DNA of 64,000 nt from a virus (taxonomy: Duplodnaviria; Caudoviricetes): the IMG/VR virus record IMGVR_UViG_3300033463_000056, positions 1 to 64,000 of that record. One strand, 5' to 3'. The translations under genes were made by a program, and so were the position numbers. How positions within the stretch are numbered: position 1 is the first letter of the stretch; the number at the start of each line of letters is the position of its first letter. The notes under the pieces are model-generated. The model was given only the letters and a program-made list of their open reading frames with translations. It did not search any database and was not told the DNA's origin. Positions 6,631 to 63,578 of the stretch are shown here, piece by piece.

Positions 6631-6681
6631 CAAAGGTATGAAAAGCAGAAAAGGGAAATACTTAACTAAGCGTTTCAGTAT
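6631..6681 (-). promoter_or_regulatory. Putative late promoter for the vRNAP gene (tripartite class)
   Basis: Sense TACCTTTG (-7 box), GTATTTCC 15 nt upstream, half-conserved TAAG-N7-CTTA box. Confidence 0.6.
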
Positions 6682-6686
6682 CTCCC
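6641..6686 (-). terminator. Intrinsic terminator after the 1,734-aa gene
   Basis: GGGAGATACT...AGTATTTCCC stem followed by TTTTCTGCTTTT. Confidence 0.6.
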
Positions 6687-6728
6687 TAAAAGGATTATTA
6701 TTACACCGTTGAAATCGGCACGATTTGG

Positions 6729-9700
6729 CTACATGACATCAACACATCGGAGCATATTCTCTCGCTGTTCAGGTGTTTTCGCCTCCCATTTCGCTTCAAC
6801 GCTCGGACCATAATATCCAACAAGTGCTTCTTTCTGCGTATCAGAAAGCAAGTCCCAAAAGCGCTTTACCTGCTCTCCGACTTTCTTCTGTTCTCCGGGG
6901 CCAAGTTCGTCTTCCTCGACAGGCATCGATTTGAACAAGGATGTTTCCGGTTTGAAAGTATCAATCTTCGGAGCCTCAAGAGTTCCGGATTCAGGAGCCG
7001 GACCGACAACGGGTTCTTCGGTAGTGGCTTTCACCTCCGCCTCGACGGTGGAAGGAGTTTCCTTATCAAGCAATTCCTTCTGGTCATCGGTGGAAACGAA
7101 TTCTCCGTCTTCGAAATGAGTGATATAGACATCAACCTGCTTCGGAAGAAGTTTCTTCGCATTGGAAGTGATAAAGCCTTTCTTGATGAAGCTTTCCAGA
7201 TTCTGTCTCGGATTCAGATCCATCGAGACACGCTCTTCGGCGAACTTGTCAAGCAGCTGATTATAGTTATCGTGACTGAGCCAGAAGCCGTCAACCTCAC
7301 CATCCTTCTTGTTCGCAGAATTCCTGTCATATCTGAGCCAAGGCTTTCCTTCCTTATCAATGATGAAGGTGAAGAATCCGTGAGTGAGGTCGACATATTT
7401 CCGAAGACCATTCGCTACGAGCTGATGCAGGTTCTTATTCTCCTCATCGAGAATTTCCTGCTTCGCTGCATCGTCAGCAGCCTGTTCAACTTCATTGAAG
7501 AACCTTCCTGCAAGACCCTCTATCTCGGACAGATGACTTCTGATCGCCTTGAAGGTAGCATCCTGTCTGGTTGTCGCATTCTTCGGAGTGAAGTGCTCGA
7601 TGCCAAGACGAATCGGCTTGTATCCGCCGTTTCCATCATTGGCAAGATAATACAATGCGCCGCGAAGTTCGTTCCTTCTTTGCGGACTCATATTACGCCA
7701 AGCGTAAATAGACCTGGCTGCGCTTGAATTACCACGAAGCGTTTCGAACAAACCGTCTCCGTTCACCCACACGATAGGAGCGCTTGCGTCATATCCTTCA
7801 ATCCCAGGGACAATCTGACCATTCTCTTCGCGTGCTATAGGACGTTCACCTGCGTAGTTCTCGGAATAATCATAATCAATGATACCGTCCCGTTTCCCCC
7901 AAACAGTCGCCTGCTTCGGGAAAACATATTCGCCGTCCTTATAACCGGCTTTCTGGAGACTGATATCGAAAGCATCCAAGAAATCCTTCAATCCCTTGTA
8001 CTGGTTGATTCCTTCACCATACCGGCGCATCACATTGAAGATATAACGCTGACCATCTTTCTCGACAGCCATAAAAATGACGGGCTTTCCGTTATCATCG
8101 TTATATCCCTCAAGCGCTACGAGCTGAACCTTGTCATCGACAGCGACTTTCGTCACTGCATTCGTCCAGGCATTATCAGAAACGAGCTTCTGAATAACCC
8201 TGTCGCCCATTCTCGGACCAATAAAATCGACAAGTTGCTGGATAGCAATCTTGCGTTTCTCATCCTTGTCCGGATCTTTTTCGGAAATCTCGAAGAAAGC
8301 TTTTGCCGACTCGACGGTGAATTCCGGAATTGCCGTCTGATAGTATTGTTTGCGACCACCGCGATCAACTTCGCTTTCTGCTTTCTTCTTCTGGGGTGGA
8401 GTATATGGCGGAGTATCTACTACTTCGTTCAAGAGCTGTTCTTTCGTAGGACTCGTAACCTTATCCTCGATGACGGTTGTTTTCGAAGTAATGGGTCTCG
8501 GCTCCTTATGAATCATATAGGTCTGATTGGTCAGACTGACGCTCCAATCACGGGAGCCAGTAAGATACATTCGGACATCACCATTCTTCCCAACAGCGAA
8601 TTCCTTGACGGTGAACTCCTCAACGATATCATTGGTCTTGTTCTCGTCATAGGTATAAATCTTTTCACCGACAGTCCAAGTGCGACCAGCGGCATCGACT
8701 GCCGTCTTCATTTCCTGGTCAACAGTAGCTGGTTTCTTCTTCTGCTCGACAGCCTTGCTGGATTCGGCGGAAGGTTCAGTCCCACTTCCCTGAACAGTAG
8801 TAGCGGCAGGAGCGGGCTCCGGTTCGGGAGTAGGATTTTCGCCTTGTCTTCCGGAAGAAGCACCACGGATATCGCCAAGTGAATTCATCGCGGCAACGAC
8901 TTTCGCGACAGCCTTATCATAAGTATCTTTCGACACTTCCATAATACCGGCACGACGGCTCAAAGCTGCATCGAAGTTGGGGGCATTCACGGTCTTCTCA
9001 CGCTCCTTCGCCATCCACTGCTCGTAAGTGTCTATTCTGGAAGCATCAACCAAATCGGAAGCGTCGACAGCTTCGTCGAAAAGCTTGTCGATGATACCAG
9101 CTTCAATACCGGAGAGCGTCCCACTCTGCTTTACATAAGCCTTTCGCAAATCGGAATAAGCGTCGTGCAAATCAAGGAACTGCGATACGAACTGATTCTT
9201 ATCCTTTGCTTTGCGGAGCTTGTCAATGAATTCGCCGACATCGCCGCCTTTCTTTTTTCTGGCGACATTATACTGCGCCTTGACTCCAGCGAGATTGATA
9301 TAGGATTCGAATTCCTTTTCGGCTTCTTCTTTCTTCTGCTCCTCTACAACCTTGTCCGCATTCTGTGCTTTGTTAGCGAATTCTTCAGAAGATAATCCCT
9401 TGAGCGTCAGGAGTTTATCGACAAACGCCTTGCGGTCAGCGGCAATCTTCTTCAGATCTTCATATTTCTGTTGAAGCGCAGTATCACCAGAAGCATCAAT
9501 CTCGGATTTAAGTTTTGAGAGAACGGGGATAACGCCGAATTCTTCAATCAGATTAGGATTAAGCGGAATCCGGATATTGGTAAGAACCTCGGCAAGGGTA
9601 CTGCGAATATTTTTCGCCTGCTCGAGACTTTCCTCCTTCTTGATGAATTTGCCTTTATCGTCGCGGGCGGAAAGAATCTTGATTTGCGGCTCGACAGATT

Positions 9701-11933
9701 GAAGGACATCACTGAACATCTCCATAAACCGTTTCTCGAAAGCCTTGATGTTCATCGAAGCGGCAATCATCTCCTCCAGCTGGTCACGGGAAGTATTTAC
9801 AGGAGCTATCGTAGACATCGCATCGTACATATCGCTATACAGCTGGATATTGTCCTTGATGTCCTTTGCCTGCTCCTTCACATTGCTAACCACTTTCTGC
9901 GGATTATTCTTGACTTCCGTAGCGTTATGTTCTCCAGTCGCTGCCTGTGTGACTTCCAAGCCATTGGAATCATCAGCCGGCATCTCGGAATAGTAATCTA
10001 CGATATCCTTCAAATCCTGAAGCCGACCAGCATTGGCGAAAGTGATAATATCGTTTATCAGCTGCTTGTCGCTCGCGGTCTTCCAAGCATACTTATCATC
10101 ACGGACAAGACCGTCAGCCATTTCCGTTTCGTATTTCTGATGACGGATATAGCCCTTGATTGCGTTCTGGAACCGTTCGGAATTCACAAGAGTATTTAGA
10201 GCATCAGCGGCAGACTGCGCTCCTGTAACTTCATCCTTCGCTGTACGATAAGCTTCGGCGACACCGCCGTTCCATCTTTTTCCAGGAATACCTACAAGAC
10301 CGGTCATCATACCGAGGAAACCTTCCTGCCAGTTACGACCATCCTTGAGATATTCCATACCGCCTTCAAGCATTCCGCCGACCCAGGAACCAAGATCTTT
10401 CAGGGATTCGCGGTCAAAGCCATCGTCGTTGAAGGAAGTTAAGCGAGCGTCGGCAACATTCTTCGCTCCGGCAGAAATGAAGCCCTGAGACATTTCCTCC
10501 GCAGCTTCGGTAGCACCATTCTTCAAAGAATACAATGCGGTCTTTCCAAGAAGCGCACCTTTCCCGGCATTCTTTGCAGCAATATCCGCGACAAGTTTTC
10601 CTTTGTTTTTCGCTATATTCCCAACGGTCTTTGCAACGTTCCGCGTTGTGTTGAATCCGCCGGAAAGCATCCGTCCAAACTGCATCGTATTAGACATCGT
10701 AAGGATAGGAAGATTCCAGAGGAAAGTCGTGGCAGCAACGCGGTCTCCGAGTTCATACATGAACTGCTGTGCCTGAAGATATTCATCCTGCAATTCCTTC
10801 CGCTTCTGGGCAAGAAGTGCGCGTCCAGCATCATTCAGTTCATACTTGACGCCAGTTGTCCCATCCGGATTAACAATGGGAACACCCTTGGCGTATCTCG
10901 GATTGGTCATATTGGCGAACTGCTGTTCGAGTTCTGCAAGATTCGTCATATATTCCTGTTGGAGTTCGCCGGTGCGACCTTCAAGAAATTCATCCCTTGC
11001 CATCACGCCTTCGAAAGTCCCTTCACCCATAGCTCCGATGACGCCGCCAAAAAGTTGATGCAAAGTGGACATCTTGTTCAGCCCCTTCGCGGAACCAGCA
11101 ATCGCTTTCGCTGTTGCAGCGTCATCAATGCCGGTGATAGAACCACTCTTGACGAGCTTCAGCACATTCTCCAAGGCGGCTTTTGATTCTGCATTTCCTT
11201 CAGCGGAAGCAAGAACTCCCTTCAGTAAATCAGAAGCAGCTACAGATTTAAGACCGGCGCTGAGGACTTTCGACCAAGCAGCACCGCCTGCAATAGCACC
11301 GACAGTAAAACCGAAGTTCTTAAGGAAAGAATCGCCGATGAAATTGGCAGAACCGATGTGCTTCCACCACTCATCCTGATATTTGTCAGAACGTTCGTAT
11401 TCGGTACGGTAATTCGGGAACCATTCTTCGCTCAATTTCTGGATATCCGCCATAGTACGGGCGGTAAAGTTGTTCACTCCGCGTCCTACAGCCGTAGACA
11501 GAGACACATCCTCTCCGCTTGCAACTTGTCGAGCCAATTCATATCCACCTTCCAGGAGTCCGTCAATGACACCGGCAACTGTCTCAACCGCCGTTGTTGC
11601 TGCGGTGATACCACCTTTGATTGCGCCGTTGAGGATTTTAGAACCACTGGACTGTTCAATTGCCCGCTGGTTCTCAAGATCCAAATCGGGATTGAAAGTG
11701 CCCCGGTCAAAGCGGGAAGTGCCCCAGCCCATCTCGACAGCTTCATCCGTAACGGTTTGACTATTTGACTGTATAGGTCTGCTGGCAGTAAGTGAAGGAA
11801 TGGAACTAATATGAGTTGCGCTATTTCCTAATCTTTTCCGTGGCTTCTGAGCAACATCTATATCGTTTTCATCGGGAAAATATTGACCGGTCTGCTGCTG
11901 CTGAAGAAGGTTACTGATATCTTTCGTATCCAT
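6729..11933 (-). CDS. Large internal virion/ejection (cargo) protein, 1,734 aa
   Basis: Gly/Ala-rich hydrophobic N-terminal helices, a helical coiled-coil middle, and position between the cargo genes and vRNAP as in crAss-like phages. Confidence 0.75.
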   Translation of the reverse strand: MDTKDISNLLQQQQTGQYFPDENDIDVAQKPRKRLGNSATHISSIPSLTASRPIQSNSQTVTDEAVEMGWGTSRFDRGTFNPDLDLENQRAIEQSSGSKILNGAIKGGITAATTAVETVAGVIDGLLEGGYELARQVASGEDVSLSTAVGRGVNNFTARTMADIQKLSEEWFPNYRTEYERSDKYQDEWWKHIGSANFIGDSFLKNFGFTVGAIAGGAAWSKVLSAGLKSVAASDLLKGVLASAEGNAESKAALENVLKLVKSGSITGIDDAATAKAIAGSAKGLNKMSTLHQLFGGVIGAMGEGTFEGVMARDEFLEGRTGELQQEYMTNLAELEQQFANMTNPRYAKGVPIVNPDGTTGVKYELNDAGRALLAQKRKELQDEYLQAQQFMYELGDRVAATTFLWNLPILTMSNTMQFGRMLSGGFNTTRNVAKTVGNIAKNKGKLVADIAAKNAGKGALLGKTALYSLKNGATEAAEEMSQGFISAGAKNVADARLTSFNDDGFDRESLKDLGSWVGGMLEGGMEYLKDGRNWQEGFLGMMTGLVGIPGKRWNGGVAEAYRTAKDEVTGAQSAADALNTLVNSERFQNAIKGYIRHQKYETEMADGLVRDDKYAWKTASDKQLINDIITFANAGRLQDLKDIVDYYSEMPADDSNGLEVTQAATGEHNATEVKNNPQKVVSNVKEQAKDIKDNIQLYSDMYDAMSTIAPVNTSRDQLEEMIAASMNIKAFEKRFMEMFSDVLQSVEPQIKILSARDDKGKFIKKEESLEQAKNIRSTLAEVLTNIRIPLNPNLIEEFGVIPVLSKLKSEIDASGDTALQQKYEDLKKIAADRKAFVDKLLTLKGLSSEEFANKAQNADKVVEEQKKEEAEKEFESYINLAGVKAQYNVARKKKGGDVGEFIDKLRKAKDKNQFVSQFLDLHDAYSDLRKAYVKQSGTLSGIEAGIIDKLFDEAVDASDLVDASRIDTYEQWMAKEREKTVNAPNFDAALSRRAGIMEVSKDTYDKAVAKVVAAMNSLGDIRGASSGRQGENPTPEPEPAPAATTVQGSGTEPSAESSKAVEQKKKPATVDQEMKTAVDAAGRTWTVGEKIYTYDENKTNDIVEEFTVKEFAVGKNGDVRMYLTGSRDWSVSLTNQTYMIHKEPRPITSKTTVIEDKVTSPTKEQLLNEVVDTPPYTPPQKKKAESEVDRGGRKQYYQTAIPEFTVESAKAFFEISEKDPDKDEKRKIAIQQLVDFIGPRMGDRVIQKLVSDNAWTNAVTKVAVDDKVQLVALEGYNDDNGKPVIFMAVEKDGQRYIFNVMRRYGEGINQYKGLKDFLDAFDISLQKAGYKDGEYVFPKQATVWGKRDGIIDYDYSENYAGERPIAREENGQIVPGIEGYDASAPIVWVNGDGLFETLRGNSSAARSIYAWRNMSPQRRNELRGALYYLANDGNGGYKPIRLGIEHFTPKNATTRQDATFKAIRSHLSEIEGLAGRFFNEVEQAADDAAKQEILDEENKNLHQLVANGLRKYVDLTHGFFTFIIDKEGKPWLRYDRNSANKKDGEVDGFWLSHDNYNQLLDKFAEERVSMDLNPRQNLESFIKKGFITSNAKKLLPKQVDVYITHFEDGEFVSTDDQKELLDKETPSTVEAEVKATTEEPVVGPAPESGTLEAPKIDTFKPETSLFKSMPVEEDELGPGEQKKVGEQVKRFWDLLSDTQKEALVGYYGPSVEAKWEAKTPEQRENMLRCVDVM

Positions 11934-14282: not shown

Positions 14283-16016
14283 TTACTTCTTGCGTTTAAC
14301 TGTTAAATATTGAGATTCGCTGCCCGGGAACAAGGTCGGTCTGGATTTTGGAACATTATACTGCAACGGAATAAAAGGACTGATTCCTGCGGGTGTAGCG
14401 GTTACTGTTTCCTTTTCCACTTTCGGCGCAGCAGGATATTCATAACGATGTGTCAGCGGATTGTAGTAAATCCCACCATTCGGGCCAGTACCGTAACCAA
14501 TGAAATAAGGATTGGTATTAATCTGATTCATTGCGAAGTCCTCCTGACCGATACCGGAGAGCGCTTCAAGACCGGAGTTGATCTGATTGCTGATAGCGTT
14601 ATATTTCGCTGCTTCCGCTTCATTGTTAAGTCTCTGAATCATCAGGTCGTTCTGTGCATTACGGACCGCTGCATCACGGAGAGCCATCGTCCTGTAATAA
14701 TCTATGTTCGCATCGAACTGAGCGCGCTGAGCTTCGGACTGATTGTTCGCTGCAATGACAGCATTCTTTCTCTGGTTATTCGCATCCCAAGCCTGGATAA
14801 AACCAGTTCCAAGATTCCCGGTAGTATTATTGTCGGCGGCAAGGATAGATGCGGCGGCAGAAGGACCAAGACCGGAATTACGGAGAGCGCGATTCGTAGC
14901 ATTCGCCTGTGCAATCTGCGCATTGGCGACCATATTCTGGTCAATCGGATTGTAGACCTGATTCTGGAAATTGATTCTTCCTTCCGGAGTATACGGCTGA
15001 ATTCTCTCTGCCTTATATTTATCAGGCTGCTGGAACACATTATACAAACCAAGAAGCCCGGAACCAATCGCTCCGGCATAACGAGGCCAAGTAGGAAGAA
15101 GTTTGCTAGCGCCGGATTCATCATCGGAAGTAGATGCAACGGAATCGCCAGAAACATCAGCGTCAGGATAAGAAGGCCAAGGCATCATCGGATGCGGCGT
15201 TGTCTTCAACTTCTCCTGCGGAGTAATAACGCGTTCTGGGAAATCATATGTCCTCGGAGCATCTGCGGTTACGCGTGCGGTATCAAGAAGAATATTATCC
15301 TCAGGAATCTCATAACCGGAAAGGTCAAATGCGGCAGGATTGATAGCGTGGGAAGCCGAACGAAGCCCGTTGTTTCTCTGAGACTGCAACCAGAGATTCC
15401 AAAGGTCATAGTTTCTCGGGCCTTTCGCGGTAACATATACGGGGTCAAGACTGCCGCCATCAGGATATTTCTTCATCGCGCCACCGCAAGCCATCACTGG
15501 AATACCGGATGGTTCGGAAACACCAACCGCTTCTTCCGGAACCATCTGCTCTGGCTGCTGTTCCTGAGAAAGCATCGCCTCCAGCTGGTCGAGTTCTTCA
15601 GGAGAAAGATTGGCGAGTTCAGCTTCCAAATCCGCCTGCTCCTTCGCCTGCTTCTGTCCTTCCTGAGCATCAGCCAAACGACCAAGAAGAGCCTCGAGTC
15701 CATTCCTGGAAATAGGGTCCAGCGGTCTTTCTTCTGCCTCGGAGAACAAATCATCGGCAATCTTCGAGTAAAGTTTGCCGGCATATTTCTTCGGAAGGTT
15801 GTTGTCTACGAGAAACTGCTCCTCGGCTTCGATATTATCGGAGTAGACATAATCCTTATATACCGGCTCGCCTTCTTCAAGGAGATTCGGATTGCCTTCA
15901 GGATCGACTCCAATCTGCACGCCACCGTTTGGATTCTCCTCGTGGGAACCTCCTTCGTTGACTCTCATGTAATCTTTCGGCGCAAAGTATCCGCCGTGTG
16001 TATCGAACTTCGACAT
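14283..16016 (-). CDS. Cargo protein (crAss001 gp45/C1-like region), 577 aa
   Basis: GGSHEENPNGGVQIG motif, Asn/Gln/Ala-rich helical C-terminal half, position after the muzzle gene. Confidence 0.7.
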   Translation of the reverse strand: MSKFDTHGGYFAPKDYMRVNEGGSHEENPNGGVQIGVDPEGNPNLLEEGEPVYKDYVYSDNIEAEEQFLVDNNLPKKYAGKLYSKIADDLFSEAEERPLDPISRNGLEALLGRLADAQEGQKQAKEQADLEAELANLSPEELDQLEAMLSQEQQPEQMVPEEAVGVSEPSGIPVMACGGAMKKYPDGGSLDPVYVTAKGPRNYDLWNLWLQSQRNNGLRSASHAINPAAFDLSGYEIPEDNILLDTARVTADAPRTYDFPERVITPQEKLKTTPHPMMPWPSYPDADVSGDSVASTSDDESGASKLLPTWPRYAGAIGSGLLGLYNVFQQPDKYKAERIQPYTPEGRINFQNQVYNPIDQNMVANAQIAQANATNRALRNSGLGPSAAASILAADNNTTGNLGTGFIQAWDANNQRKNAVIAANNQSEAQRAQFDANIDYYRTMALRDAAVRNAQNDLMIQRLNNEAEAAKYNAISNQINSGLEALSGIGQEDFAMNQINTNPYFIGYGTGPNGGIYYNPLTHRYEYPAAPKVEKETVTATPAGISPFIPLQYNVPKSRPTLFPGSESQYLTVKRKK

Positions 16017-16019
16017 ATC

Positions 16020-24721: not shown

Positions 24722-24772
24722 CAAATGTAAAAAGAAAAGGAGTCCAGAATTAAACTGAAACTCCTTTACTTA
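24722..24772 (-). promoter_or_regulatory. Putative late promoter for the tail operon, overlapping the terminator of the upstream gene
   Basis: Sense TACATTTG; ATAAG half-site at the conserved spacing; hairpin AAAGGAGTTTCAG/CTGGACTCCTTT plus a T-tract at 24729-24767. Confidence 0.5.
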
Positions 24773-24791
24773 TCCAATCCAAGGACTCCTG

Positions 24792-30975: not shown

Positions 30976-31026
30976 CAAATGTATTTAAATGGGAAAAGCG
31001 AATTACTCTTGTAAGTAACTCGCTTA
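30976..31026 (-). promoter_or_regulatory. Putative late promoter for the scaffold-capsid operon (best consensus copy)
   Basis: Sense TAAG-CGAGTTA-CTTA, N5, GTAATTCG, N15, TACATTTG; overlaps a terminator-like hairpin at 30994-31025. Confidence 0.7.
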
Positions 31027-31064
31027 TCGCTAATTAAGAAATTTAATTATTTGAACAGAAACGA

Positions 31065-39449: not shown

Positions 39450-39470
39450 AAATCTGCACAGTTTACATGG

Positions 39471-39521
39471 CGAATTTATCTTTTAATCCACCACGAACTA
39501 CGCAGATAAGCGAAACGCTTA
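39471..39521 (-). promoter_or_regulatory. Putative late promoter for the portal-lysis operon
   Basis: Sense TAAG-CGTTTCG-CTTA, N5, GTAGTTCG, N15, TAAATTCG. Confidence 0.65.
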
Positions 39522-41795
39522 CTGGTCGAAAGTTGATTTATATTGAGGTCCTAACTTTTCGAGATGCCGCTTCCAATCCTTGTCGAAGAAATCGTCATCG
39601 GAATCATCCGGTTCGGTCTTCTGCACCTCATCGCCATCGCCGTATAGGATTTGATACTGATGACGATAAAGCATGACTTGCATAAGGGCGCTGACCCTAT
39701 CCGTATTTGCGCCACCGCCATACGAAATCATTTCCTGAATCATGGCTCTGCTCCATAACCTATAAGCGCCAGGAACCAAAACAGTCTGTACTTCCCCATT
39801 TTCGTCAACCTGTTGTTCGACAGTTTCTTTCAAGAGCCAGTCGCGAATCAAATCCTGAGCGAAAGCGATAATGGCGGGTAGTGCCTGAACGCCCTTACTT
39901 GAAGAACCCGTAGTAGAATACTTCACCATCTCCCGCTCCTTAAGGTACTCTGGGCAGTCGGCGAGCATGTGTAATGAGTGTTTCTTCGCAAAATACGCAT
40001 AAACATTTTTCTTGTTCGCCTCAGGCATACACTTAGCGTTATAGAAACGGCACATCAACCAAGCCATACGGCAGTTATCCTCATTAAGCGGAAGCCGACC
40101 TGTATATTCGGCGACCGGAATATCCTGAAATAAGTCAAACATTACACAGGAAAATAACGATTCCGAATCTGCCTCTTCATCATTTTCAACTGGGTCAATA
40201 CCTAAAACGTATCTGTTCGGAGTGTTTTCGGTCCCGGGTGCAGGCATCTGGAAAATCTCCAATGCACCATGAACTCCAATGGTATTCTTATGGTTCTTGT
40301 TTATCGGCCATTCACGAATTGGAATATCATTCGTCGTTATGAACTTCACACTACCGCCAGATTCGATAAGATTACCGATATACATCTTATCATAAAAATG
40401 AGGAGACTGGTCTATCTGGCGCAGGCGTTCATTCAGCAAATCCGTCGGGAACAATCCACGGCGAACACGAAGAATTGCTTCTTCAGGGGTTATAGGACGC
40501 TGAGCTATGACACTAAGCAGTGTTTCTGGCTTCGACTTGCGAACACTGTTTCTATTATTCAAGATAGCAAGAATAGACTTAATCACATCAGAATTGCCAT
40601 CCTTATCCATGCATCCAGTGCGAGAAATATAAGAAGGAAAGAAATATCCGAACTTATCTCTACCCTTTCCGCTCATATCATACACGTTCTCTATTGCATA
40701 GATTTCATATGCGTCCGGATCATACAGTATCTCCCTTGCTCCAGAGAAATCCGAATCCTTATCGCCGGCGGTTCCAACGAGATATATCAGGGCGAACACT
40801 TCTTCACCATCCTTTACCGAGTCACGAGTATTATTATATGTGGCGAGTAGATTTTTGAACGAGCCCATTTCCTCAAATAGGATAAATCCTCGTTTACCAC
40901 GAACCTTCGCTTCGTCATCCTTGACGGCTACGCCCATAACAGAGTTTTTTGAACCATCGTTTACCCCATTTGAATTTATCCTTCCGGCAATCCATAGCAT
41001 ATCGGACGGTCTATTGGTGCTGAGAAGACGAGGAAACTCCGTATTCGAAGCAACAAAATCCTTCATCTTGACAAATTTATCAAGAGTACCATCTTTTTGG
41101 GAAAGATATTCTTTCGTATAACCGGCAAGAATCGTAGTAACTTCAGTCTTTGAAAACTCATTTTCACCAAGAACGAGATTGTGTGACATTATCCCACCAA
41201 GAGTGTAAGATTTACCAGCTCCTCGACGAGCAAGTTCGATACAATGCTTATGTGCTTTGCGAGCTTGGTCTATATAATGAAAACGATAGTAAACACCCTC
41301 CCAAAATAATGGGAATCCTGGTATCTGCGCAGATATTCCAGTCTTTGGGTCTTTCTTCGTAATCTTAATACGACAATAATTCAGATACCAGTACATAAGT
41401 CCGGGTATCCATTCGCCGTCAGATTCCCTTACATAACCTTCCCTGCATCGTTTCGCTTCCTCCATAATCCATTTGCCATACTCGCTTCGCGGATTCGGAT
41501 TCGGTTTAAGAAAAGTATAGCAACCATTCTCCTCATAGAATTTTGCAGCTGGACGGAAGAAATCCGTATTCTCGAGGATGTGTGGATGGGCAATATCGAC
41601 TATAATCTTACCATCTCCGTCTCTCGGCAGGTCTTTCGCTTTGGGCCTATCTGGAGAAATCATCCATTGCAGGAGTGGGACATTATTCATAAAATCCAAA
41701 AATTGCTCCCTGACCCAAGGGTCGAGAGAAGCAATTAAGGATTCCGTAACCGGAGTTTGGAATTGATTAGTTGGTATAAAAACAGTGTCAGTCAT
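39519..41795 (-). CDS. terL: Terminase large subunit
   Basis: Walker A ARRGAGKS, Walker B ILFEEMG, GTAG coupling motif, nuclease LGIDP...AEYTGR...DRVSA. Confidence 0.93.
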   Translation of the reverse strand: MTDTVFIPTNQFQTPVTESLIASLDPWVREQFLDFMNNVPLLQWMISPDRPKAKDLPRDGDGKIIVDIAHPHILENTDFFRPAAKFYEENGCYTFLKPNPNPRSEYGKWIMEEAKRCREGYVRESDGEWIPGLMYWYLNYCRIKITKKDPKTGISAQIPGFPLFWEGVYYRFHYIDQARKAHKHCIELARRGAGKSYTLGGIMSHNLVLGENEFSKTEVTTILAGYTKEYLSQKDGTLDKFVKMKDFVASNTEFPRLLSTNRPSDMLWIAGRINSNGVNDGSKNSVMGVAVKDDEAKVRGKRGFILFEEMGSFKNLLATYNNTRDSVKDGEEVFALIYLVGTAGDKDSDFSGAREILYDPDAYEIYAIENVYDMSGKGRDKFGYFFPSYISRTGCMDKDGNSDVIKSILAILNNRNSVRKSKPETLLSVIAQRPITPEEAILRVRRGLFPTDLLNERLRQIDQSPHFYDKMYIGNLIESGGSVKFITTNDIPIREWPINKNHKNTIGVHGALEIFQMPAPGTENTPNRYVLGIDPVENDEEADSESLFSCVMFDLFQDIPVAEYTGRLPLNEDNCRMAWLMCRFYNAKCMPEANKKNVYAYFAKKHSLHMLADCPEYLKEREMVKYSTTGSSSKGVQALPAIIAFAQDLIRDWLLKETVEQQVDENGEVQTVLVPGAYRLWSRAMIQEMISYGGGANTDRVSALMQVMLYRHQYQILYGDGDEVQKTEPDDSDDDFFDKDWKRHLEKLGPQYKSTFDQ

Positions 41796-45338: not shown

Positions 45339-45346
45339 CAAAGATA
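45339..45346 (-). promoter_or_regulatory. Bacteroidetes-type -7 box
   Basis: Sense TATCTTTG 21 nt before the ATG; lacks the upstream tripartite elements. Confidence 0.5.
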
Positions 45347-45402
45347 GCCAAATGCTTTCTAAAATAAAAACATTTTTGTTTCATTTATTCTAACAGAATT
45401 AG

Positions 45403-48273: not shown

Positions 48274-48281
48274 CAAAATTA
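48274..48281 (-). promoter_or_regulatory. Bacteroidetes-type -7 box
   Basis: Sense TAATTTTG upstream of 48219. Confidence 0.45.
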
Positions 48282-48312
48282 TAATGGCTTGCTCATAAAA
48301 GACAATAATGCT

Positions 48313-51831: not shown

Positions 51832-51840
51832 TTGATTGAG

Positions 51841-56463: not shown

Positions 56464-58521
56464 TTATAAATTAAATCGGTAGTGAATTTTCTTCGTCCGT
56501 TCCGTTTCGCTCATGTCGAACGCCTTGTACGCTCCGTAGTTCACGCGGTAGATATCCTGCGAAACAGTGTCAATTTCAAGCATCGTGAGCTTGATACTAT
56601 TCAACGTTCCATCCTGCTTCGCAACCTTGTTGAGCGCAACGCCCTCTGCGCCCATTGACGGCGCGCCAAGCATAAGCATGTCATACATCTTGCTTCCATC
56701 TGCCTTCTGTACCTGATATTCATTCTCGGAATGGATGTGTCCGAAAAGGTGACAGATGTAATGGAGATTACCGATGTTAGAAAAGTCCTCGTTGATGATT
56801 ATGTTCCTGTCGCCGGAGTCATCTGCATAGGTCTTGGAAAGCGTGGTCTTTCGCTGCATCGCGTCAATAATATCGGGAACCAGGAACGGATCTTGATGGA
56901 AGTTACAGTCAGACCTAAACGGTCCAGATGTCGTGTAATCATCACTAAGTTTTAAGTCCCCGAAGCCATAGTGCATCATCGTGATTACTTTGTATCCGTT
57001 GTTCGCAGCACCTTTTAGAGTGTTGATCAACCAATTAATCTGCGTCTGAGAAAAGACACAGTTCATCGAGGCGAATCCAGCATACGGGGTGGTTTGGTTA
57101 CTCCCATATACATTGTAGTATTCCCCATCGTCATAGTCCGCAGGATCAAGATTGATAACACGTATTGTTCCGATCGTGGCGTTCGGAGTGATATCTATAT
57201 ATCCGTATGCGCGATAGTTCGCGGAATCGCCGAAGTGATAGTTCGAGCCGTTCTTGCTCGCCATCATCGCACAGATGATGTCATAATACTGTTTCTTCGT
57301 GATTCCAGGAACGTCGTGGTTGCCGGATGAAACGATGATAGGCAACGACGTAGCTCCTATAGCATTGACGTAAGCCGTCAACTCCGGGAGTGGATTACCA
57401 GGCGCAGCCCCCTGTGCCGCATTGGCGTTATCGCCCGTGTCCACGACGAGGTCGGCAAGGTCTTTTAAGCCAATGGCTTCATTAAGGTTCGCAATGGTCG
57501 CGTGGTTGTCCGAAAAGTGCATGATTCGGAGTCTGTCGTACCATACACGATTATACTTCCCCTTCTTATAGGAGTAGTAGTCTTCCTTGAACGCCAATTT
57601 CCTCTGCGCCTTGTCGTCAACGCCCGCACTTGTATTCTTCAACTCCTCAATTTCACTGACCACCTGCTCGGAATCGAAATACTTCGTCCGAACGTGGCCT
57701 TCTTCAAAGAGAACAATATCCTTTCCGTTCTTGTCTCCGATTGACAGGTTGTTTATTCCTATATCCGAAACATCTCTATAAATCTCAGAAAGAGATATTG
57801 AAGATGCTCCATCCTTGATCTTGACATCTGTTGCCTCAATCCCGGAGGTGTCAACCCTTGCGACGAACGAGCCACCGTCTGTCTGGAATTCCAAGCACTC
57901 ATCTTGCGCCGGTGAGCTAACGAACGTGACGTTGTGCACCTTCTTGCTAAGAATATCAATATCATCACCGATACGCTTCCCCTCAGCAGCGCTTAAACCC
58001 TTCGTGGCATCGTCTGTGGTGCGGTTATTAACCAGTTCGTATGGATAATCAACGGATGAGCCCGTGTTTCCCTGCTCACCCTTAATGCCAGAAAGGGATA
58101 TGGAAAGAACACCATCGTTTACTCTCGCCGTACCGGAAGGGGATCCCGTTGTATTACTTACATTGACGGTGAATGTACCACTGTTGATTCCAGCAGGTCC
58201 GACGGGGCCTGTCGCTCCAGTGTCACCCTTCGGCCCCTGCAATCCAGGAAGCCCCTGCTCGCCTTGTGGACCACGCTCGCCGGTATCGCCCTTGTCTCCT
58301 TTCTCGCCCTTCTCGCCTCTTCCGCTTCTTGAGGAACGTTTCCAAACAGTATCATCGGTTCCGGGGACAACATTCCGGTTCGGCTTTACGGATATATAAG
58401 AACATCCATCTCCGCCGTCTTCCTCGGCATAATACACCTGGGTCAGCGTGTCATAGTATTTACCATGCACATAATTGCCGTCAACCGTAATGGATACTTT
58501 GTATAATTTGTTATCAGTCAT
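56464..58521 (-). CDS. Collagen-like fibre protein, paralog A, with a C-terminal calcineurin-like metallophosphoesterase
   Basis: Gly-X-Y repeats; SDNH, TGDN, GNHD, MMH and GHIH motifs; start MTDNK matches paralog B. Confidence 0.85.
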   Translation of the reverse strand: MTDNKLYKVSITVDGNYVHGKYYDTLTQVYYAEEDGGDGCSYISVKPNRNVVPGTDDTVWKRSSRSGRGEKGEKGDKGDTGERGPQGEQGLPGLQGPKGDTGATGPVGPAGINSGTFTVNVSNTTGSPSGTARVNDGVLSISLSGIKGEQGNTGSSVDYPYELVNNRTTDDATKGLSAAEGKRIGDDIDILSKKVHNVTFVSSPAQDECLEFQTDGGSFVARVDTSGIEATDVKIKDGASSISLSEIYRDVSDIGINNLSIGDKNGKDIVLFEEGHVRTKYFDSEQVVSEIEELKNTSAGVDDKAQRKLAFKEDYYSYKKGKYNRVWYDRLRIMHFSDNHATIANLNEAIGLKDLADLVVDTGDNANAAQGAAPGNPLPELTAYVNAIGATSLPIIVSSGNHDVPGITKKQYYDIICAMMASKNGSNYHFGDSANYRAYGYIDITPNATIGTIRVINLDPADYDDGEYYNVYGSNQTTPYAGFASMNCVFSQTQINWLINTLKGAANNGYKVITMMHYGFGDLKLSDDYTTSGPFRSDCNFHQDPFLVPDIIDAMQRKTTLSKTYADDSGDRNIIINEDFSNIGNLHYICHLFGHIHSENEYQVQKADGSKMYDMLMLGAPSMGAEGVALNKVAKQDGTLNSIKLTMLEIDTVSQDIYRVNYGAYKAFDMSETERTKKIHYRFNL

Positions 58522-58522: not shown

Positions 58523-58921
58523 TTACACAATTCTTAAATATCCTGTTTCCTGATCGAAGACCAGATGCTGATTTACGCCGAATTCCCCTTCGACAAGATG
58601 GAGATACATGTTCTCATCGACATATGCATTCGACCAAATTGAATCGCCTTTGTCGCCCTTGATAATTTTCTGGGCTGCTTGGACTATTGCATCATACGCC
58701 TCCTTCGCATTCACGAAGGACTCGAGAAGCAATCCATAAGTGCAGCAGGTAGACATACCGATATCCCTTGTCTGGATCAACCGGTATCCATCACAATGCC
58801 TGCTTCCTCCATTCTTCAGTATCTGAAACGCATCTTTGTCGCTTGTGGCGGCAACCAACGCGATTCCGGATTCGGAACCCACCGTGAAGGAGATAGTATA
58901 CAGATGATATGCGTCGGTCAT
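58523..58921 (-). CDS. Hypothetical fibre-associated protein
   Basis: Short KGDKGD collagen element; C-terminal DQETGYLRIV. Confidence 0.65.
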   Translation of the reverse strand: MTDAYHLYTISFTVGSESGIALVAATSDKDAFQILKNGGSRHCDGYRLIQTRDIGMSTCCTYGLLLESFVNAKEAYDAIVQAAQKIIKGDKGDSIWSNAYVDENMYLHLVEGEFGVNQHLVFDQETGYLRIV

Positions 58922-58946
58922 AAAAATTTCCCTTTTAATACGTTAA

Positions 58947-58997
58947 CAAACATAAACAAAAGGGAAACTCGAACGACGAACACAAATGGTTCTGTTA
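58947..58997 (-). promoter_or_regulatory. Putative late promoter for the fibre operon
   Basis: Sense TATGTTTG, GTCGTTCG 15 nt upstream, degenerate upstream box. Confidence 0.55.
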
Positions 58998-59011
58998 TAT
59001 GGGAAAAGGAA

Positions 59012-59046: not shown

Positions 59047-59436
59047 ATGATAACGCAAAACGATGAACTTATTCCGATGCCGATATGCGGAATAGAAATC
59101 CTTGATTTTCTATTAGCATTAATTTATATCGTAATTCCTATCGCAATGTTAATAATTGCAATGAAAAGCGATATGAATGTTGTTTTAAAGTCGATAATTG
59201 CAATAATATCGATAACGTCATGTATTTTAGCCACAAAAGAACTGATTGATTTCCTTGGAGCTTTCGAATCAGTTCATTGCAAGACCAGCTTGTTCCGTCA
59301 TCCTTTAGGTGTAAGCAGAAGAACGGTTTACCAATCAATAAGAATGTTCGGGATAAACACTTTCAGTTTACCGGCGACAATACTTACATTCCTCTCCATC
59401 GCATTTGTTATTATACGCGGATATTCCAAGGGCTAA
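59047..59436 (+). CDS. Three-TM membrane protein, moron-like
   Basis: AT-rich, opposite strand, own promoter; in-frame start MITQNDE. Confidence 0.6.
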   Translation: MITQNDELIPMPICGIEILDFLLALIYIVIPIAMLIIAMKSDMNVVLKSIIAIISITSCILATKELIDFLGAFESVHCKTSLFRHPLGVSRRTVYQSIRMFGINTFSLPATILTFLSIAFVIIRGYSKG

Positions 59437-62400
59437 ATTCCTCTTTTCCACTAACGCCCGCTATTTCATTTATTGCCTTTATGACGGCATCTTTCGAATG
59501 GTGCATCAGATATCGTAGATTCTTTCCTCCTTCATGCTCGAATATTTTGTCGTAGTCTGAGGATTTGAATTCCGCATTCGGGCCCATTGAATCAAATATC
59601 CCATTCTTCTGCAGGAAATATCGAAGTGCCATCAGGTCCGAATAGTTCTCGCTTGCCTCAGCGTCGTGTTCATTAACCTGTATATTCGGACGAAGAAGAT
59701 ACATCCAATACGGCGGAACCTTCGTATAGTCATTTCCATAATACGGAGACAAGTCCTTGTTTTTTCGAAGCGGATGATACCAATCATCATATCTTGTGTT
59801 AAACAAAGGATTCAAATGAGCCATTTCGTGTGCGGCAACAATGCCGGGATATAGCCCTTCGCCATATTTGTTATCTTCGGAAATCGCTTTGTCTATGATT
59901 GTTTTCCCGAGAATCGTATTTGACGTAGGAAAATCCATATAATACGGAACGAGCCCTATATTTACCTCGCCATTTCCGGACGTATACGAATCCCAAATAT
60001 CCATGTCGGGATACACATACATTTCCGTTTTCAATTTCAAGTCTTTTGCCGGCAAACCAGCATCAGCCATCCTTTTCTTATATCCATCTGACGAATAGTA
60101 ATTTTCAACAAAAGTTGTAGCGTCCCACGCGTCGTTCATATTGTCCGGAATTCTTACCGGTGTGTCAAGATATATAGCAGTTGTTCTTTTTGGACCGCCC
60201 TCTTCAAACTTATTCTCCTTAATTCTTTGAATCGCTTTCTTTAATTTGTCCGGTGAGTATTTCTCCATCATCCGCTTTGGAAGAATCATCGAACCACCTT
60301 CTTCGAACGCCCACTCCTGTTTAAGATAATCCTCTGGAACATCGACCTCATACCAGGTATTGCCCTTCGGATCGGTCACTGTACGGATTTCTGCATTCTT
60401 ATAGAGTTTCTTGAACTGCTTCGGAAAAGCATCATACTTCTGAAGAATCGTTTCAGCCGATTTCGGGTCCCCATCGATAGTGTAGACCTCCTTTTTCGTA
60501 ATTCCAGGTTTTAACTGAGAATGATTTTCAAGTATATTTCGCTTTTGGCCCTCAAGGTCTACTACATCTGAATATGTGTTTTGTGTCAGCCAAACAGTTT
60601 TATCATTTTCATGTCTGCGAAAAGCGATTGAGCCAAACTCCTCGTCTTTATTTGTTAAATCTTGAATTCGTTTTTCAATATCATCGTATTTATTCTTCCA
60701 TTCCTTTGAAAGCTCAGTTACGCTTCCACTCTTCGTAACATCGTTTCCGTTTACGTCGTAATATGCTTCGCCCTTACCATATCCTTCAATCTTCGCCGCT
60801 GTTTCCCTTGTAGGATATCGCATCTTTTTCTGACCTTTTTCAGCCGCATAACGAAGATTTTCTTGAATCTGACGAGAAGTAAAATTGTCGGCAAGGTAGT
60901 CCTGCTGAGCAGCCAGTTTTGGGTTCTTTCGCATATCAAGTTCGTTAGAAAGTTCTTTCAACAACTGCTTATCCTTGTCTATTTGTTTCCTTAAAGAATC
61001 TTCGAACCACGCTGACATATCCGACCCGTCGTTCATCTTCTTAGTCCTTAGACCTTCCATCTCGCCATTTATCGAATCCCGAAGATTTTTTATCCTTCTT
61101 TCTAGAGAATTAATTCTTTTCTGGTTATACTCACCACCAAAATTCTTTTTGTCATACCGTTGCGCCCAATCACTCTGACTTTCCATTACATGAAGCACGT
61201 CCGGTTCATCGGCTATAGTATAAGTACGAGAATGACCAAGCGTGTTTGGATCATAATGCCTCGCGGAGCCATTAGGAATACGAGGAGAAGAGAACGTGTA
61301 TGTATCCAATGTTACGCCATGCTCTTTTTTGTATAATGGCTCAAGTTGACCAATTGTATATTCGTCACCAGTTCTTGTGTCTATAAATTCACTTGGCCAC
61401 TCATATTCCTTTTGATACGGCATTCTTTCACGCGCCGGCTTATAATATCCTTTTGATAACGCCCATTCTTTTATGTCCTTATCGCTTCCGCCCCAATTAA
61501 GTGCTTCTCCTCCATAATTGTCATACCTCGTATCCGGAGTCCTATCATAAGTAATCAACTCGTCCTGAACGGCCTTCCTGAATTTATTGTAGTCAATAGA
61601 CTTTTGTCCGGCGAATTCCTCCGAAGAAAGCACCTTGTCAATGACAACCTGTTCCACTTTGCTTCCCTTATTGGCGAGCGCACGGACATTGTTCACATTG
61701 ACTGTACCATTCTTCGATAATTGCTTTTCCAACGGATTTCCTCGCATCAGAGACTTCAGCATATATCCTCCACCAAGGTCTGCAATTTCATACGATTTCG
61801 TTGCAGCCGGAACAGCCTCCATCGTCGCCCTCGCCGCAGGCAACGCATAAGTGAAGTTCGTACTAACCCTCCCAGGAGTATTTTCAAGCATCGCACGAAA
61901 AATATCTTCGCCGAAATTCGTAGCTTCGTCAACATAATTACGCAGATATCCATAACCCCTTCCCAAGGCACCCAGACCAAGACCCATAGCAGCAGCCATG
62001 CCCAGGTCCCTTCCGACCTTTCCATATTCTCCGTTCGCAGTATCAGCGCCCATGTGCCCGAGCCAGGTTATCGCACCGGCTGGAGTAGGCGTAAGACCGA
62101 CAACGGTATCAACCGTATTGAATATCTTTTGGCCAGCCCTGTTCATCGCCTCGGAAACAGGTTTCACTCCGTAAAGGTATCCTTCAGCATATCTCCGTGC
62201 GGTCTCTTGAGAGCCGTTGAACTTTTCAGGCAATGCGGCAGTGATAACGGAAGGGTCAATAGTCCCCCCATACAAATCCGGCGTCTCCTGAAGATACTGT
62301 AGATAATCTCCGCCCAAAGGAATTACGCCATAGGGACCACCATCGTCGAAATAATTCTGCAAGAATCCTCCGTCCCCGTGGTGCCACTTTCTCGAATTCA

Positions 62401-63523
62401 GCGCGAACACAGCCATCTTCTTCTGTGCCGGTGTCCCATGAGCCTTAAACCAAGAAGCAGAATGCCCAGTGCGTTTCTTCAATGCCGTGAACTTTCCGCG
62501 ATTTTCGGGCTTGATTCTAATCGGACCACCGTTCCTGCGGAAAATAGGATATTCATTCTCGAGCGTATCTATCTCCTCGAGCAATTTCTTATTCCTACCG
62601 AGCTCCTTTCCGCCAGAATATCTCTTGTAATTCTTCCGGATCATGTCCATATTCCCGGAATGGAATCCCTCCATCAACGAAGGGAATTTCTGCAATCCCG
62701 GATTATACGAATAATCCACCAGGATACTCTGTGATTTATCACTCAACTTATCCCATTCTCCCTCCCCGTACTTCTTATCATATACCCTCTTGGCCGCATC
62801 ATAATACTTCTGGGCCAAAGTATCCGCAAATTCCGTAGCCTGCTCATCTGTGAGATATCCCTGCTTCAAAGCCAACTTCGCTTCCGGAGTACCATTGGAC
62901 AGCTTGATCCCATATGCTATCGTATCAGCACCACCCTCTACAGATTTATGGGGATACCATCTACCTTCCTTCGCATTCCAACCACCTTTCGGATTCGTCT
63001 TGCTGTTCTCCACAGCCATAATCCTTCTGGCCGCATCCTTCACGGGATCGAGAATCGAAACAACGGCAGATTCTTCCACGGTTCCGCGAGACGGGTCATA
63101 CATGAAAGGAACCAATCCCCTAACCTCCGGAACCTGGACATCATACGCCAGTTCGCCGCTTCCATTCGGCAACAGATCCGGCTGGAAATACATCGGATAC
63201 GCCTGCTTGTAATTCTCCGTGAAAATCTTCGCATCCGGCGTAGACATCTGTAACGTATCACCCCGATACACGGCCCTATCATAAGCCATATCGTCATCAA
63301 ACGCATGCAACCCATCACCTACGCTCTGCACGGTAGGATACACAACAGCATTCCCCTTCCCGTCATCACGATAAGCAAGACCGTGCGTAGAGAAACTTCC
63401 GTCATCGTTCACGACATACTGCCTTCTCTGGTCGAGAAGCCTTTTCACGAAATCAGCACTCGAGGTGGAATTCACCTTCTCGGCTATACGCTTCACTCTA
63501 TCCGATGTATCAAATACTTTCAT
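59411..63523 (-). CDS. Multi-domain (polyvalent) virion protein with a lysozyme-like domain and a C-terminal zincin-like domain, about 1,370 aa
   Basis: IMAVENS...KSVEGGADTIAYGIKL...LVDYSYN (T4-lysozyme-like); IKPENRGKF basic module; HYD..TLGHSR...ESQSDW domain; AAHEMAH. Probable start MKVFD. Confidence 0.8.
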   Translation of the reverse strand: MKVFDTSDRVKRIAEKVNSTSSADFVKRLLDQRRQYVVNDDGSFSTHGLAYRDDGKGNAVVYPTVQSVGDGLHAFDDDMAYDRAVYRGDTLQMSTPDAKIFTENYKQAYPMYFQPDLLPNGSGELAYDVQVPEVRGLVPFMYDPSRGTVEESAVVSILDPVKDAARRIMAVENSKTNPKGGWNAKEGRWYPHKSVEGGADTIAYGIKLSNGTPEAKLALKQGYLTDEQATEFADTLAQKYYDAAKRVYDKKYGEGEWDKLSDKSQSILVDYSYNPGLQKFPSLMEGFHSGNMDMIRKNYKRYSGGKELGRNKKLLEEIDTLENEYPIFRRNGGPIRIKPENRGKFTALKKRTGHSASWFKAHGTPAQKKMAVFALNSRKWHHGDGGFLQNYFDDGGPYGVIPLGGDYLQYLQETPDLYGGTIDPSVITAALPEKFNGSQETARRYAEGYLYGVKPVSEAMNRAGQKIFNTVDTVVGLTPTPAGAITWLGHMGADTANGEYGKVGRDLGMAAAMGLGLGALGRGYGYLRNYVDEATNFGEDIFRAMLENTPGRVSTNFTYALPAARATMEAVPAATKSYEIADLGGGYMLKSLMRGNPLEKQLSKNGTVNVNNVRALANKGSKVEQVVIDKVLSSEEFAGQKSIDYNKFRKAVQDELITYDRTPDTRYDNYGGEALNWGGSDKDIKEWALSKGYYKPARERMPYQKEYEWPSEFIDTRTGDEYTIGQLEPLYKKEHGVTLDTYTFSSPRIPNGSARHYDPNTLGHSRTYTIADEPDVLHVMESQSDWAQRYDKKNFGGEYNQKRINSLERRIKNLRDSINGEMEGLRTKKMNDGSDMSAWFEDSLRKQIDKDKQLLKELSNELDMRKNPKLAAQQDYLADNFTSRQIQENLRYAAEKGQKKMRYPTRETAAKIEGYGKGEAYYDVNGNDVTKSGSVTELSKEWKNKYDDIEKRIQDLTNKDEEFGSIAFRRHENDKTVWLTQNTYSDVVDLEGQKRNILENHSQLKPGITKKEVYTIDGDPKSAETILQKYDAFPKQFKKLYKNAEIRTVTDPKGNTWYEVDVPEDYLKQEWAFEEGGSMILPKRMMEKYSPDKLKKAIQRIKENKFEEGGPKRTTAIYLDTPVRIPDNMNDAWDATTFVENYYSSDGYKKRMADAGLPAKDLKLKTEMYVYPDMDIWDSYTSGNGEVNIGLVPYYMDFPTSNTILGKTIIDKAISEDNKYGEGLYPGIVAAHEMAHLNPLFNTRYDDWYHPLRKNKDLSPYYGNDYTKVPPYWMYLLRPNIQVNEHDAEASENYSDLMALRYFLQKNGIFDSMGPNAEFKSSDYDKIFEHEGGKNLRYLMHHSKDAVIKAINEIAGVSGKEEFSPWNIRV

Positions 63524-63527
63524 GTCG

Positions 63528-63578
63528 CAAATATTAACCAAATATCCTTTCAGGATACACGAGTAACAAGGTTACTTA
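63528..63578 (-). promoter_or_regulatory. Putative late promoter for the polyvalent protein gene
   Basis: Sense TAAG-TAACCTT-GTTA, N5, GTATCCTG, N15, AATATTTG. Confidence 0.55.

Follow-up and report, generated by a model that had tools for sequence, protein, structure and literature searches.

Six putative host-type promoters with a fixed upstream register and no -33 element precede virion operons of a crAss-like phage

The virion genes of a Caudoviricetes genome, IMG/VR record IMGVR_UViG_3300033463_000056, are preceded at six places by a Bacteroidota-type -7 box (TAnnTTTG or a one-base variant) and by bases further upstream that keep a constant distance from it, both within this genome and in related phages. 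The window analyzed here comprises positions 1-64000 (64,000 nt) of this 94,278-bp record, which carries terminal repeats. We consider it probable that the six sites, hereafter class B, are middle or late promoters of the virion-gene block, which the host primary-sigma RNA polymerase would read through TAnnTTTG and which would belong to a class with extended upstream blocks. The phage is crAss-like and related to the Steigviridae/Asinivirinae. Its capsid protein shares ~52% identity with the one in Bacteroides phage DAC15 and ~48% with those of crAss001-type phages. The virion genes lie on the minus strand, descending from 63523 to 1 and on over the record ends to 89651, while the replication genes occupy the plus strand from 63855 on.

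Six sites share a box-anchored upstream register

A first-pass annotation, made from the letters of the window, had proposed a tripartite late-promoter motif at these sites, consisting of a palindrome (TAAG-N7-CTTA), a middle box (GTAnTTCG), and the -7 box. Its coordinates and sequences all proved correct, including the palindromes at 31012-31026, 39507-39521, and 63564-63578. The six cassettes are as follows.

6631..6691, minus strand: before the virion RNA polymerase (vRNAP) gene; box TACCTTTG 6631-6638, 8-mer GTATTTCC 6654-6661, CTTA 6667-6670, ATAC 6678-6681 in the place of TAAG.
24722..24782, minus strand: before gene 24085-24705; box TACATTTG 24722-24729, GTTT 24758-24761, TAAG 24769-24772.
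30976..31036, minus strand: ahead of the genes for the gp31/gp092 homolog and the major capsid protein; box TACATTTG 30976-30983, 8-mer GTAATTCG 30999-31006, CTTA 31012-31015, TAAG 31023-31026.
39471..39531, minus strand: before the portal gene; box TAAATTCG 39471-39478, 8-mer GTAGTTCG 39494-39501, CTTA 39507-39510, TAAG 39518-39521.
58947..59007, minus strand: ahead of genes 58523-58921 and 56464-58521, the latter for the tail fibre; box TATGTTTG 58947-58954, 8-mer GTCGTTCG 58970-58977, TTTG 58983-58986, TAAC 58994-58997.
63528..63588, minus strand: within the divergent region and ahead of gene 59411-63523, with which the minus-strand block opens; box AATATTTG 63528-63535, 8-mer GTATCCTG 63551-63558, GTTA 63564-63567, TAAG 63575-63578.

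A start codon (ATG) lies 5-25 nt downstream of each box. In the sense orientation, the strict TAnnTTTG sequence occurs in intergenic DNA of the late block only at 6631, 24722, 30976, 45339, 48274, and 58947; the boxes at 39471 and 63528 depart from it by one base (TTCG and AA.., respectively). Gene 24085-24705 heads an operon that also encodes an IHF-like protein, a tail tubular protein, and large virion proteins. At the portal site, the TAA of TAAG (39518-39521) is the stop codon of the terminase gene. The upstream element had been called partial at 6631, 24722, and 58947, which understates two of these sites, since TAAG stands in register at 24722 and TAAC at 58947.

When the 70 nt upstream of the six sites were aligned on the box without gaps, the alignment reached 43.5 bits compared with 26.8 ± 2.1 for dinucleotide shuffles, none of which (0/2000) attained the observed value, and eighteen columns held the same base in at least five of the six sites. 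With a matrix of upstream positions only (box excluded), each site left out in turn fell within the top 0.4% of 188,422 positions, at ranks 6, 7, 24, 177, 179, and 743. A matrix built from relatives only returned exactly the six sites as the six best of the 188,422 genome positions, with scores of 16.5-50.5 against 3.1 for the next best, and we therefore count six members of class B in this genome. The boxes at 45339 and 48274 fall outside this top six, and the earlier observation that the 48274 box lacks the class-B elements holds.

Conservation was assessed in relatives collected through capsid and portal protein searches, using whole genomes: close relatives have capsid proteins 86-91% identical and DNA ~70-80% identical to those of this phage, and the portal proteins of more distant clade members are 68-75% identical. 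Searching the phage collection at the DNA level with a 14-kb portion of the window gave no matches, nor did blastn of the vRNAP intergenic region against the relatives, and orthologous promoters were located by gene order and the -7 box. The resulting set, aligned on the box, contains 32 orthologous sites, which represent nine genomes and six intergenic families that are not homologous to one another; positions such as -43 are counted from the first base of the -7 box. TAA[G/C] begins at -43 in 22 of the 32 sites and at any other offset in at most four. Although the intergenic DNA before the vRNAP gene and the "first gene" defies alignment between relatives, it holds TAAG-N7-(G/T)TT(A/G) at an equal distance from the box. 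Weighting by family leaves as constant T(-53), T(-52), T(-43), A(-42), A(-41), T(-31), T(-30), and G(-23), of which T(-53), A(-41), and T(-31) are invariant. The constant bases recur every ~10-11 bp, and a T-rich stretch lies immediately 5′ of the box. Of the consensus first proposed, the fixed register thus stands, while only the portal and gp092 families preserve the middle box GTAnTTCG. It varies freely across relatives at 24722 and in the vRNAP family because it lies there in the loop or arm of a terminator. Together these results confirm the observation as real and stronger than originally stated: the motif is enriched over shuffled sequence, its spacing is kept in relatives, and motif, register, and conservation all support a distinct promoter class heading the virion operons.

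Class-B sites lack the -33 element of canonical promoters

Promoters of the Bacteroidota primary sigma factor, as reportedly defined by Bayley and colleagues in 2000, combine a -33 TTTG with a -7 TAnnTTTG. Class-B sites resemble them in the -7 element and in a distance to the start codon that fits short leaders, and differ in having conserved bases further upstream and no TTG at N19-21 from the box. This TTG is absent from all six sites in the genome and present in one of the 32 class-B sites in the nine genomes, compared with 14 of 15 canonical promoters of the same genomes (7/7 in the 48274 family, where it stands at N21, and 7/8 among plus-strand promoters of the replication module). We also considered G(-23) as the G of a displaced TTG (N22) and rejected the idea, which fits some relatives only and not this genome. 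Two minus-strand promoters of the window serve as contrasts.

48274..48305, minus strand: canonical host-type promoter, TTG-N21-TAATTTTG, before 47416-48219, without the class-B upstream bases.
45339..45385, minus strand: box TATCTTTG, preceded by GAAACAAAAATGTTTT (AACA-N-TGTT element), heading a small-gene operon that includes gp11-like and gp13-like putative regulators.

Further canonical promoters of the full type are found on the plus strand at 65401, 68428, and 81232. One phage would thus appear to maintain two promoter types for the same host polymerase, of which only the type at virion operons is predicted to lack the -33 contact.

Separately, a near-palindromic element, AACATTTTTGTT (AACA-N4-TGTT), accompanies host-type promoters at 45354-45372 of the window and at genome positions 65385-65408, 68405-68435, and 81220-81239. 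It supplies the -33 TTTG at 68428 (TTTG-N20-box), abuts the -7 box at 65401 and 81232, and is reversed before the 45339 box; it is kept in relatives.

Hairpins overlap five of the six sites

Minimum free energy (MFE) folds place hairpins over five of the six class-B sites, all on the minus strand.

6652..6687: terminator-like hairpin GGGAGATACT / AGTATTTCCC with a T-rich tail (MFE fold, z -2.3), where gene 6729-11933 ends; the 3′ arm forms the middle box of the first-pass annotation.
24732..24771: terminator hairpin AAAGGAGT...ACTCCTTT followed by TCTTTT, with the stem kept in relatives (covariation judged by eye) and the middle box in the loop, where it is not conserved in relatives.
30993..31028: conserved 13-14-bp stem-loop of the gp092 site (z -5.3), with TAAG-N7-CTTA at the apex and the GTAA of the middle box in the 3′ arm.
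39455..39522: two conserved hairpins of the portal site, H1 (TAAGCG/CGCTTA, 39506-39522; 6-bp stem, 3-nt loop) and H2 (39455-39504).
58924..58970: 14-bp stem (z -3.7) between the T-rich stretch before the box and the A-rich leader just before the ATG, with the -7 box in the loop; similar pairing was seen by eye in G001.

At the sixth site, 63528, no co-directional gene lies upstream and there is no significant fold (z 0.0). Only the hairpins at 6631 and 24722 are called terminators here, because they combine fold and tail; a simple terminator scan did not call those at 24722 and 30976, given its loop-length and T-tail criteria. The conserved stem at 30976 has a weak T tail, and the portal hairpins have none.

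The stems at the gp092 and portal sites show compensatory change. Across seven genomes, 84.7% of cells in the gp092 stem are paired, compared with 22-51% in slid controls, and six pairs have changed on both sides. In 18 portal sequences, 85.7% of cells in H1 and H2 are paired compared with 31-48% for slid partners, and 33 cells have changed on both sides compared with 3-9 in controls, a level reached by none of 500 shuffles. The inner pairs of H1 vary as TAAGCA/TGCTTA, TAAGTG/CACTTA, and TAAACG/CGTTTA. In H2, the 3′ half of the 8-mer, together with its next bases, pairs with CGCC and its adjoining downstream bases, immediately beyond the box, which places the portal -7 box inside the loop. Many of the portal pairs are G-U, which suggests a structure of the sense strand, most simply RNA. 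Outside H1 and H2, within 39450-39535, ATCTGC, immediately 3′ of CTTA, pairs with a GCAGAT that abuts the portal ATG, with a compensatory AACTGC/GCAGTT in G001 and a G-U variant in G002; the entire portal promoter region could lie inside one long stem in read-through RNA.

These hairpins account for the "palindrome" and for part of the "middle box". The distance between hairpin and box differs by family while the constant bases keep their register, which also holds at 63528, and for this reason we read the hairpins as superimposed features (terminators and RNA elements) and not as the source of the shared register. The two-fold symmetry itself is lost in most families, which carry TAAC..CTTG, TAAG..GTTT, TAAG..TTTA, or TAAG..GTTG.

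In a separate observation, strong G+C-rich terminators (GGGGCGGG...CTCGCCCC) occur at 25553-25576 and 47170-47195, before genes 24792-25541 and 46762-47163, respectively. They are kept in relatives and, unlike the class-B cassettes, are not followed by a -7 box.

Class-B sites align with promoters of other crAss-like phages

The first-pass annotation was aware of no described late-transcription switch in crAss-like phages. An extended tripartite promoter, though not a switch protein, has in fact been published for the same genes by Drobysheva et al. (bioRxiv 10.1101/2020.03.07.982082; later in Nature, 2021). According to that work, the injected polymerase gp66 of phage phi14:2 transcribes the early genes, and middle and late transcription needs the rifampicin-sensitive host enzyme, with which the earlier proposal that the -7 box marks reading by host sigma-A agrees. 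The same source describes an "extended tripartite motif" in which two blocks resemble -35 and -10 elements. Similar motifs were reported there at 126 putative promoters, spread over 14 genomes of Betacrassvirinae candidate genus VI (among them crAss001), and their most frequent place is ahead of genes homologous to gp069, gp66, the IHF subunit, gp092, and portal. Four of our six sites stand at the published genes, namely 6631 (vRNAP), 24722 (IHF-like operon), 30976 (gp092 homolog), and 39471 (portal).

The promoters of phi14:2, crAss001, and DAC15 and ~35 portal loci from human-gut IMG/VR records were then placed in one frame with the six sites. As in the six sites, CTTA precedes the box by 28 nt, and TAAn or TTAA by 39 nt, in the crAss001, DAC15, and ~35 human-gut portal promoters. 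A matrix of the human-gut upstream region (columns -56 to -25) agrees with the six sites at no shift but 0, where the summed score is +5.2, compared with -35 to -123 at shifts of ±1 to ±8. In crAss001, DAC15, phi14:2, and the human-gut promoters, columns -23 to -21, which are the first three columns of the middle box, read TTG (TTG-N20-box). From this alignment, TAAG and CTTA are the counterparts of upstream blocks in the crAss001 and DAC15 promoters, and the promoters themselves probably fall into the published class.

Class-B sites are like the promoters of Drobysheva et al. in joining a -7/-10-like block to extra conserved upstream blocks before the same genes. They are unlike them in that the -35/-33-like TTG is absent from this clade, with G (usually GT(A/T)) instead, in that the portal box is mostly TTCG and not TTTG, and in that the cassettes are interwoven with covarying hairpins. 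Our verdict is a lineage-specific variant of a published promoter class and not a categorically new one. Class B also resembles the terminator/promoter cassettes found between phage operons, insofar as a hairpin and T-rich tail precede the -7 box at 6631 and 24722. It departs from them in a register independent of the hairpin, in the lack of a terminator context at 63528, and in the lack of a good T tail at 30976 and 39471.

Candidate regulatory proteins

The gene at 43835-44245 (minus strand) is an ortholog of crAss001 gp13, annotated as a "VpsT-like transcriptional regulator" (tblastn, 40% identity, E 1e-28). Its conserved homologs number more than 300, the best 120 of them 66-92% identical, and DAC15 and phi14:2 (g098) are among the phages with a homolog. 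The gene shares the operon of the 45339 promoter, which is of a different type, with the gp11-like zinc-ribbon gene. An AlphaFold (AF2) model of the protein (pLDDT, the predicted local distance difference test score, 75.6) shows a winged-helix-like core. VIA-align matched this model to winged-helix domains at Z 5.5-7.0, inside the tool's stated noise range. The matches to MotA also lie in that range and are no better than those to many unrelated winged-helix domains (6k4y_M, Z 6.4, root-mean-square deviation (rmsd) 6.3; 1bja_B, Z 6.1, rmsd 4.1). A Foldseek search of the model against the PDB gave no match at E <= 0.001, and a PDB sequence search with the protein gave none.

Among the other candidates, 48363-48641 (minus strand) encodes a small protein with a helix-turn-helix (HTH) hit below the cut-off (HTH_17, E 0.0012) and a match to phrog_668, "HTH DNA binding protein" (E 9e-6). 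By synteny, 22471-22929 (minus strand) occupies the position of crAss001 gp42 (HU/IHF-like), and it is a distant homolog of phi14:2 g073, "IHF subunit" (tblastn E 0.009). The "HTH/HU-like" labels given earlier to genes at 43393-44245, 22471, and 48363 point to candidates (a gp13 ortholog, a weak HTH, and a distant IHF homolog); they are weaker than stated, because Pfam finds no match for 43393-43857, 43835-44245, or 22471-22929. The phage genome encodes no sigma-70 region 2, and a sub-threshold region-4-like HTH lies at genome positions 70568-70642. An IHF site within the cassette was considered and rejected, as the IHF consensus (WATCAA-N4-TTR) does not fit the spacing of the blocks.

Other features of the window and record

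The vRNAP gene comprises window positions 1-6608 and genome positions 89651-94151, which form a single open reading frame of 3,702 codons (3,702 aa) over the record ends, apparently a fusion of counterparts of DAC15 gp076 and gp077. The catalytic motif of the gene product, DFDGD, also occurs in G001 and G003 and aligns with DFDID of DAC15; the Drobysheva preprint gives I or V at the fourth position in all crAss-like polymerases (bioRxiv 10.1101/2020.03.07.982082).

Several observations stand apart from the promoters described above. A 589-codon open frame at 14310-16079 (plus strand) lies antisense to, and is nearly coextensive with, the 577-codon virion gene 14283-16016 (minus strand), and is probably a compositional artefact of a genome with 46-47% G+C. 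At 45816-46765, an insertion of ~950 bp that G001 and G003 lack contains a gene for an HNH homing endonuclease on the plus strand (45870-46769; NUMOD4, HNH_3, and I-HmuI-like) with its own TAnnTTTG box at 45830, oriented opposite to the surrounding late genes. A recurrent junction motif, (C/T)GGCCCTAATTGAnTGA, stands directly 5′ of small-gene start codons at 51563-51641 and 51816-51840 of the window and at genome positions 84270-85116.

Discussion

The account that we favor starts from the host sigma-A polymerase, which would read the six sites through the Bacteroidota -7 element TAnnTTTG. Upstream of it, a fixed architecture of TT at -53/-52, TAA(G/C) at -43 to -40, nTTn at -32 to -29, G at -23, and T-rich sequence before the box would, with its recurrence of ~10-11 bp, place the constant bases on one face of the helix. 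The absent contact of sigma region 4 may be replaced by upstream contacts, made either by the alpha subunit of the polymerase, as with an UP element, or by a phage protein made earlier, such as the gp13-like winged-helix protein, which could also delay these operons. Each promoter would in addition be packed against a hairpin: at 6631 and 24722 the putative terminator of the preceding operon, at 30976 and 39471 a conserved stem-loop with a TAAG/CTTA apex, and at 39471 and 58947 a hairpin that encloses the -7 box and reaches the leader.

Several points weigh against this account. The status of the six sites as promoters is predicted from sequence. The match to the published motif rests on the alignment of crAss001, DAC15, and phi14:2 promoters made here and not on the published logo, and phi14:2 itself has TAAA and not CTTA at these columns. 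The portal site could be mainly an RNA element, because in most relatives its box reads TTCG and not TTTG and lies inside a conserved hairpin loop. Finally, the middle promoters of phi14:2 are transcribed by the E. coli holoenzyme without a phage factor (bioRxiv 10.1101/2020.03.07.982082), so that the family as a whole does not depend on a helper protein.

In this clade, the contrast between class B, which lacks the -33 TTG (1/32), and canonical promoters, which keep it, makes a phage-encoded activator or modifier of sigma plausible. In T4 middle transcription (sigma appropriation by MotA/AsiA) and N4 late transcription (N4SSB), a host -10-type element is kept, no usable -35-type element is present, and a phage protein recruits the polymerase; N4 late promoters need the activator N4SSB. 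Class B is like these promoters in having a host -10-type element without a usable -35-type element, and no homolog of MotA, AsiA, or N4SSB was identified in this phage. In its full form, the proposal holds that class B is inactive with the host holoenzyme alone and that a protein from an earlier operon recruits the polymerase. It is a sub-case of the host-polymerase account and not an exclusive rival to it, retaining the idea of the first-pass annotation minus the palindrome, with the gp13-like protein, the gp11-like zinc ribbon, the 48363 HTH protein, and the IHF-like protein as candidates. We regard it as possible but doubtful. The coexistence of two promoter classes in one genome, with TTG at -33 missing only from the virion-operon class, fits it, as do the strong conservation of the gp13-like protein and its presence in crAss001, DAC15, and phi14:2, the placement of its gene under a promoter of another type (45339), its modeled winged-helix-like core, and a Crassvirales program described as broadly N4-like. 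The fold matches, however, stay within noise (Z <= 7.0), that to the MotA N-terminal domain (Z 6.1-6.4) is not outstanding, and the E. coli result for phi14:2 speaks against a needed factor. Furthermore, in crAss001 and DAC15 the same upstream blocks coexist with a good -33 TTG and hence are no simple substitute for the -33 element.

The remaining explanations concern the hairpins and the palindrome. If the shared bases were a by-product of terminators or RNA stem-loops lying against ordinary promoters, they would have no role in recognition. The hairpins at five of the six sites suggest this, as do the middle box that drifts at 24722 and in the vRNAP family while the stems stay, the compensatory changes in the portal and gp092 stems with G-U pairs at the portal, and the use of the portal-family TAA as the terminase stop codon. 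We nonetheless judge it unlikely, given that hairpin ends vary by family under a fixed TAA/TT/G register, that 63528 and its orthologs in G001 and G004 carry the blocks with no preceding gene (and 63528 without a significant fold), and that human-gut crAss promoters, whose hairpins are different or absent, have the same register. The dimeric DNA-binding activator on TAAG-N7-CTTA that was originally proposed is very unlikely. Its appeal lies in a palindrome without mismatch at 31012-31026 and 39507-39521 and with a single one at 63564-63578, both half-sites of which are among the conserved columns. The symmetry is lost across sites and relatives, however: the fourth base of the first block does not track the first base of the second, the human-gut clade combines TTAA or TAAA with CTTA, and the real inverted repeat at 63528 (AGTAAC/GTTACT) is centered 2 nt off the motif center. 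Where symmetry persists, at the portal and gp092 sites, the inner positions covary and G-U is tolerated at the portal, which argues for a nucleic-acid stem and not a protein site. Least probable of all, and to our minds hardly credible, are N4-like hairpin promoters read by a newly made phage RNA polymerase instead of the host enzyme. The covarying portal H1, with its 6-bp stem and 3-nt loop, has the appropriate shape, and Shkoporov et al. speculated that the crAss001 polymerase subunits of the middle phase might transcribe late genes. The gp66 polymerase of phi14:2 transcribes only single-stranded or denatured DNA in vitro (bioRxiv 10.1101/2020.03.07.982082). Such a hairpin occurs, however, in only two of the six families, and the geometry of a short stem (5-7 bp) with a 3-nt loop in the portal family only; a host -7 box stands at a fixed distance in every site, late structural genes follow and not early ones, and rifampicin sensitivity of middle and late transcription in phi14:2 points to the host enzyme.

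A more far-reaching version of the host-polymerase account, which is speculative and in our estimate rather unlikely, is that in this clade the virion promoters are unusable for host sigma-A polymerase alone for want of the -33 element. A phage protein from an earlier operon (gp13-like or a partner) would then bind the phased bases or re-tool sigma region 4, and the box-enclosing hairpins of the portal and fibre sites, which pair with the leader, would let promoter-initiated transcripts be translated but not those from read-through. If true, this would be the first late-gene switch defined for the Crassvirales.

For promoter analysis in general, the "palindromes" described here, which lie next to promoters and are hairpins with compensatory changes, are a caution against reading such repeats as operators. 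For crAss-like phages, in which dependence on the host polymerase and a promoter motif have been published, the sites bear on the handover from the injected polymerase to the host enzyme and on the timing of the virion genes. The genome described here offers a natural contrast, with canonical -33/-7 promoters beside six sites that lack the -33 element and carry phased upstream bases, and this contrast yields concrete positions and a short list of conserved candidate proteins.

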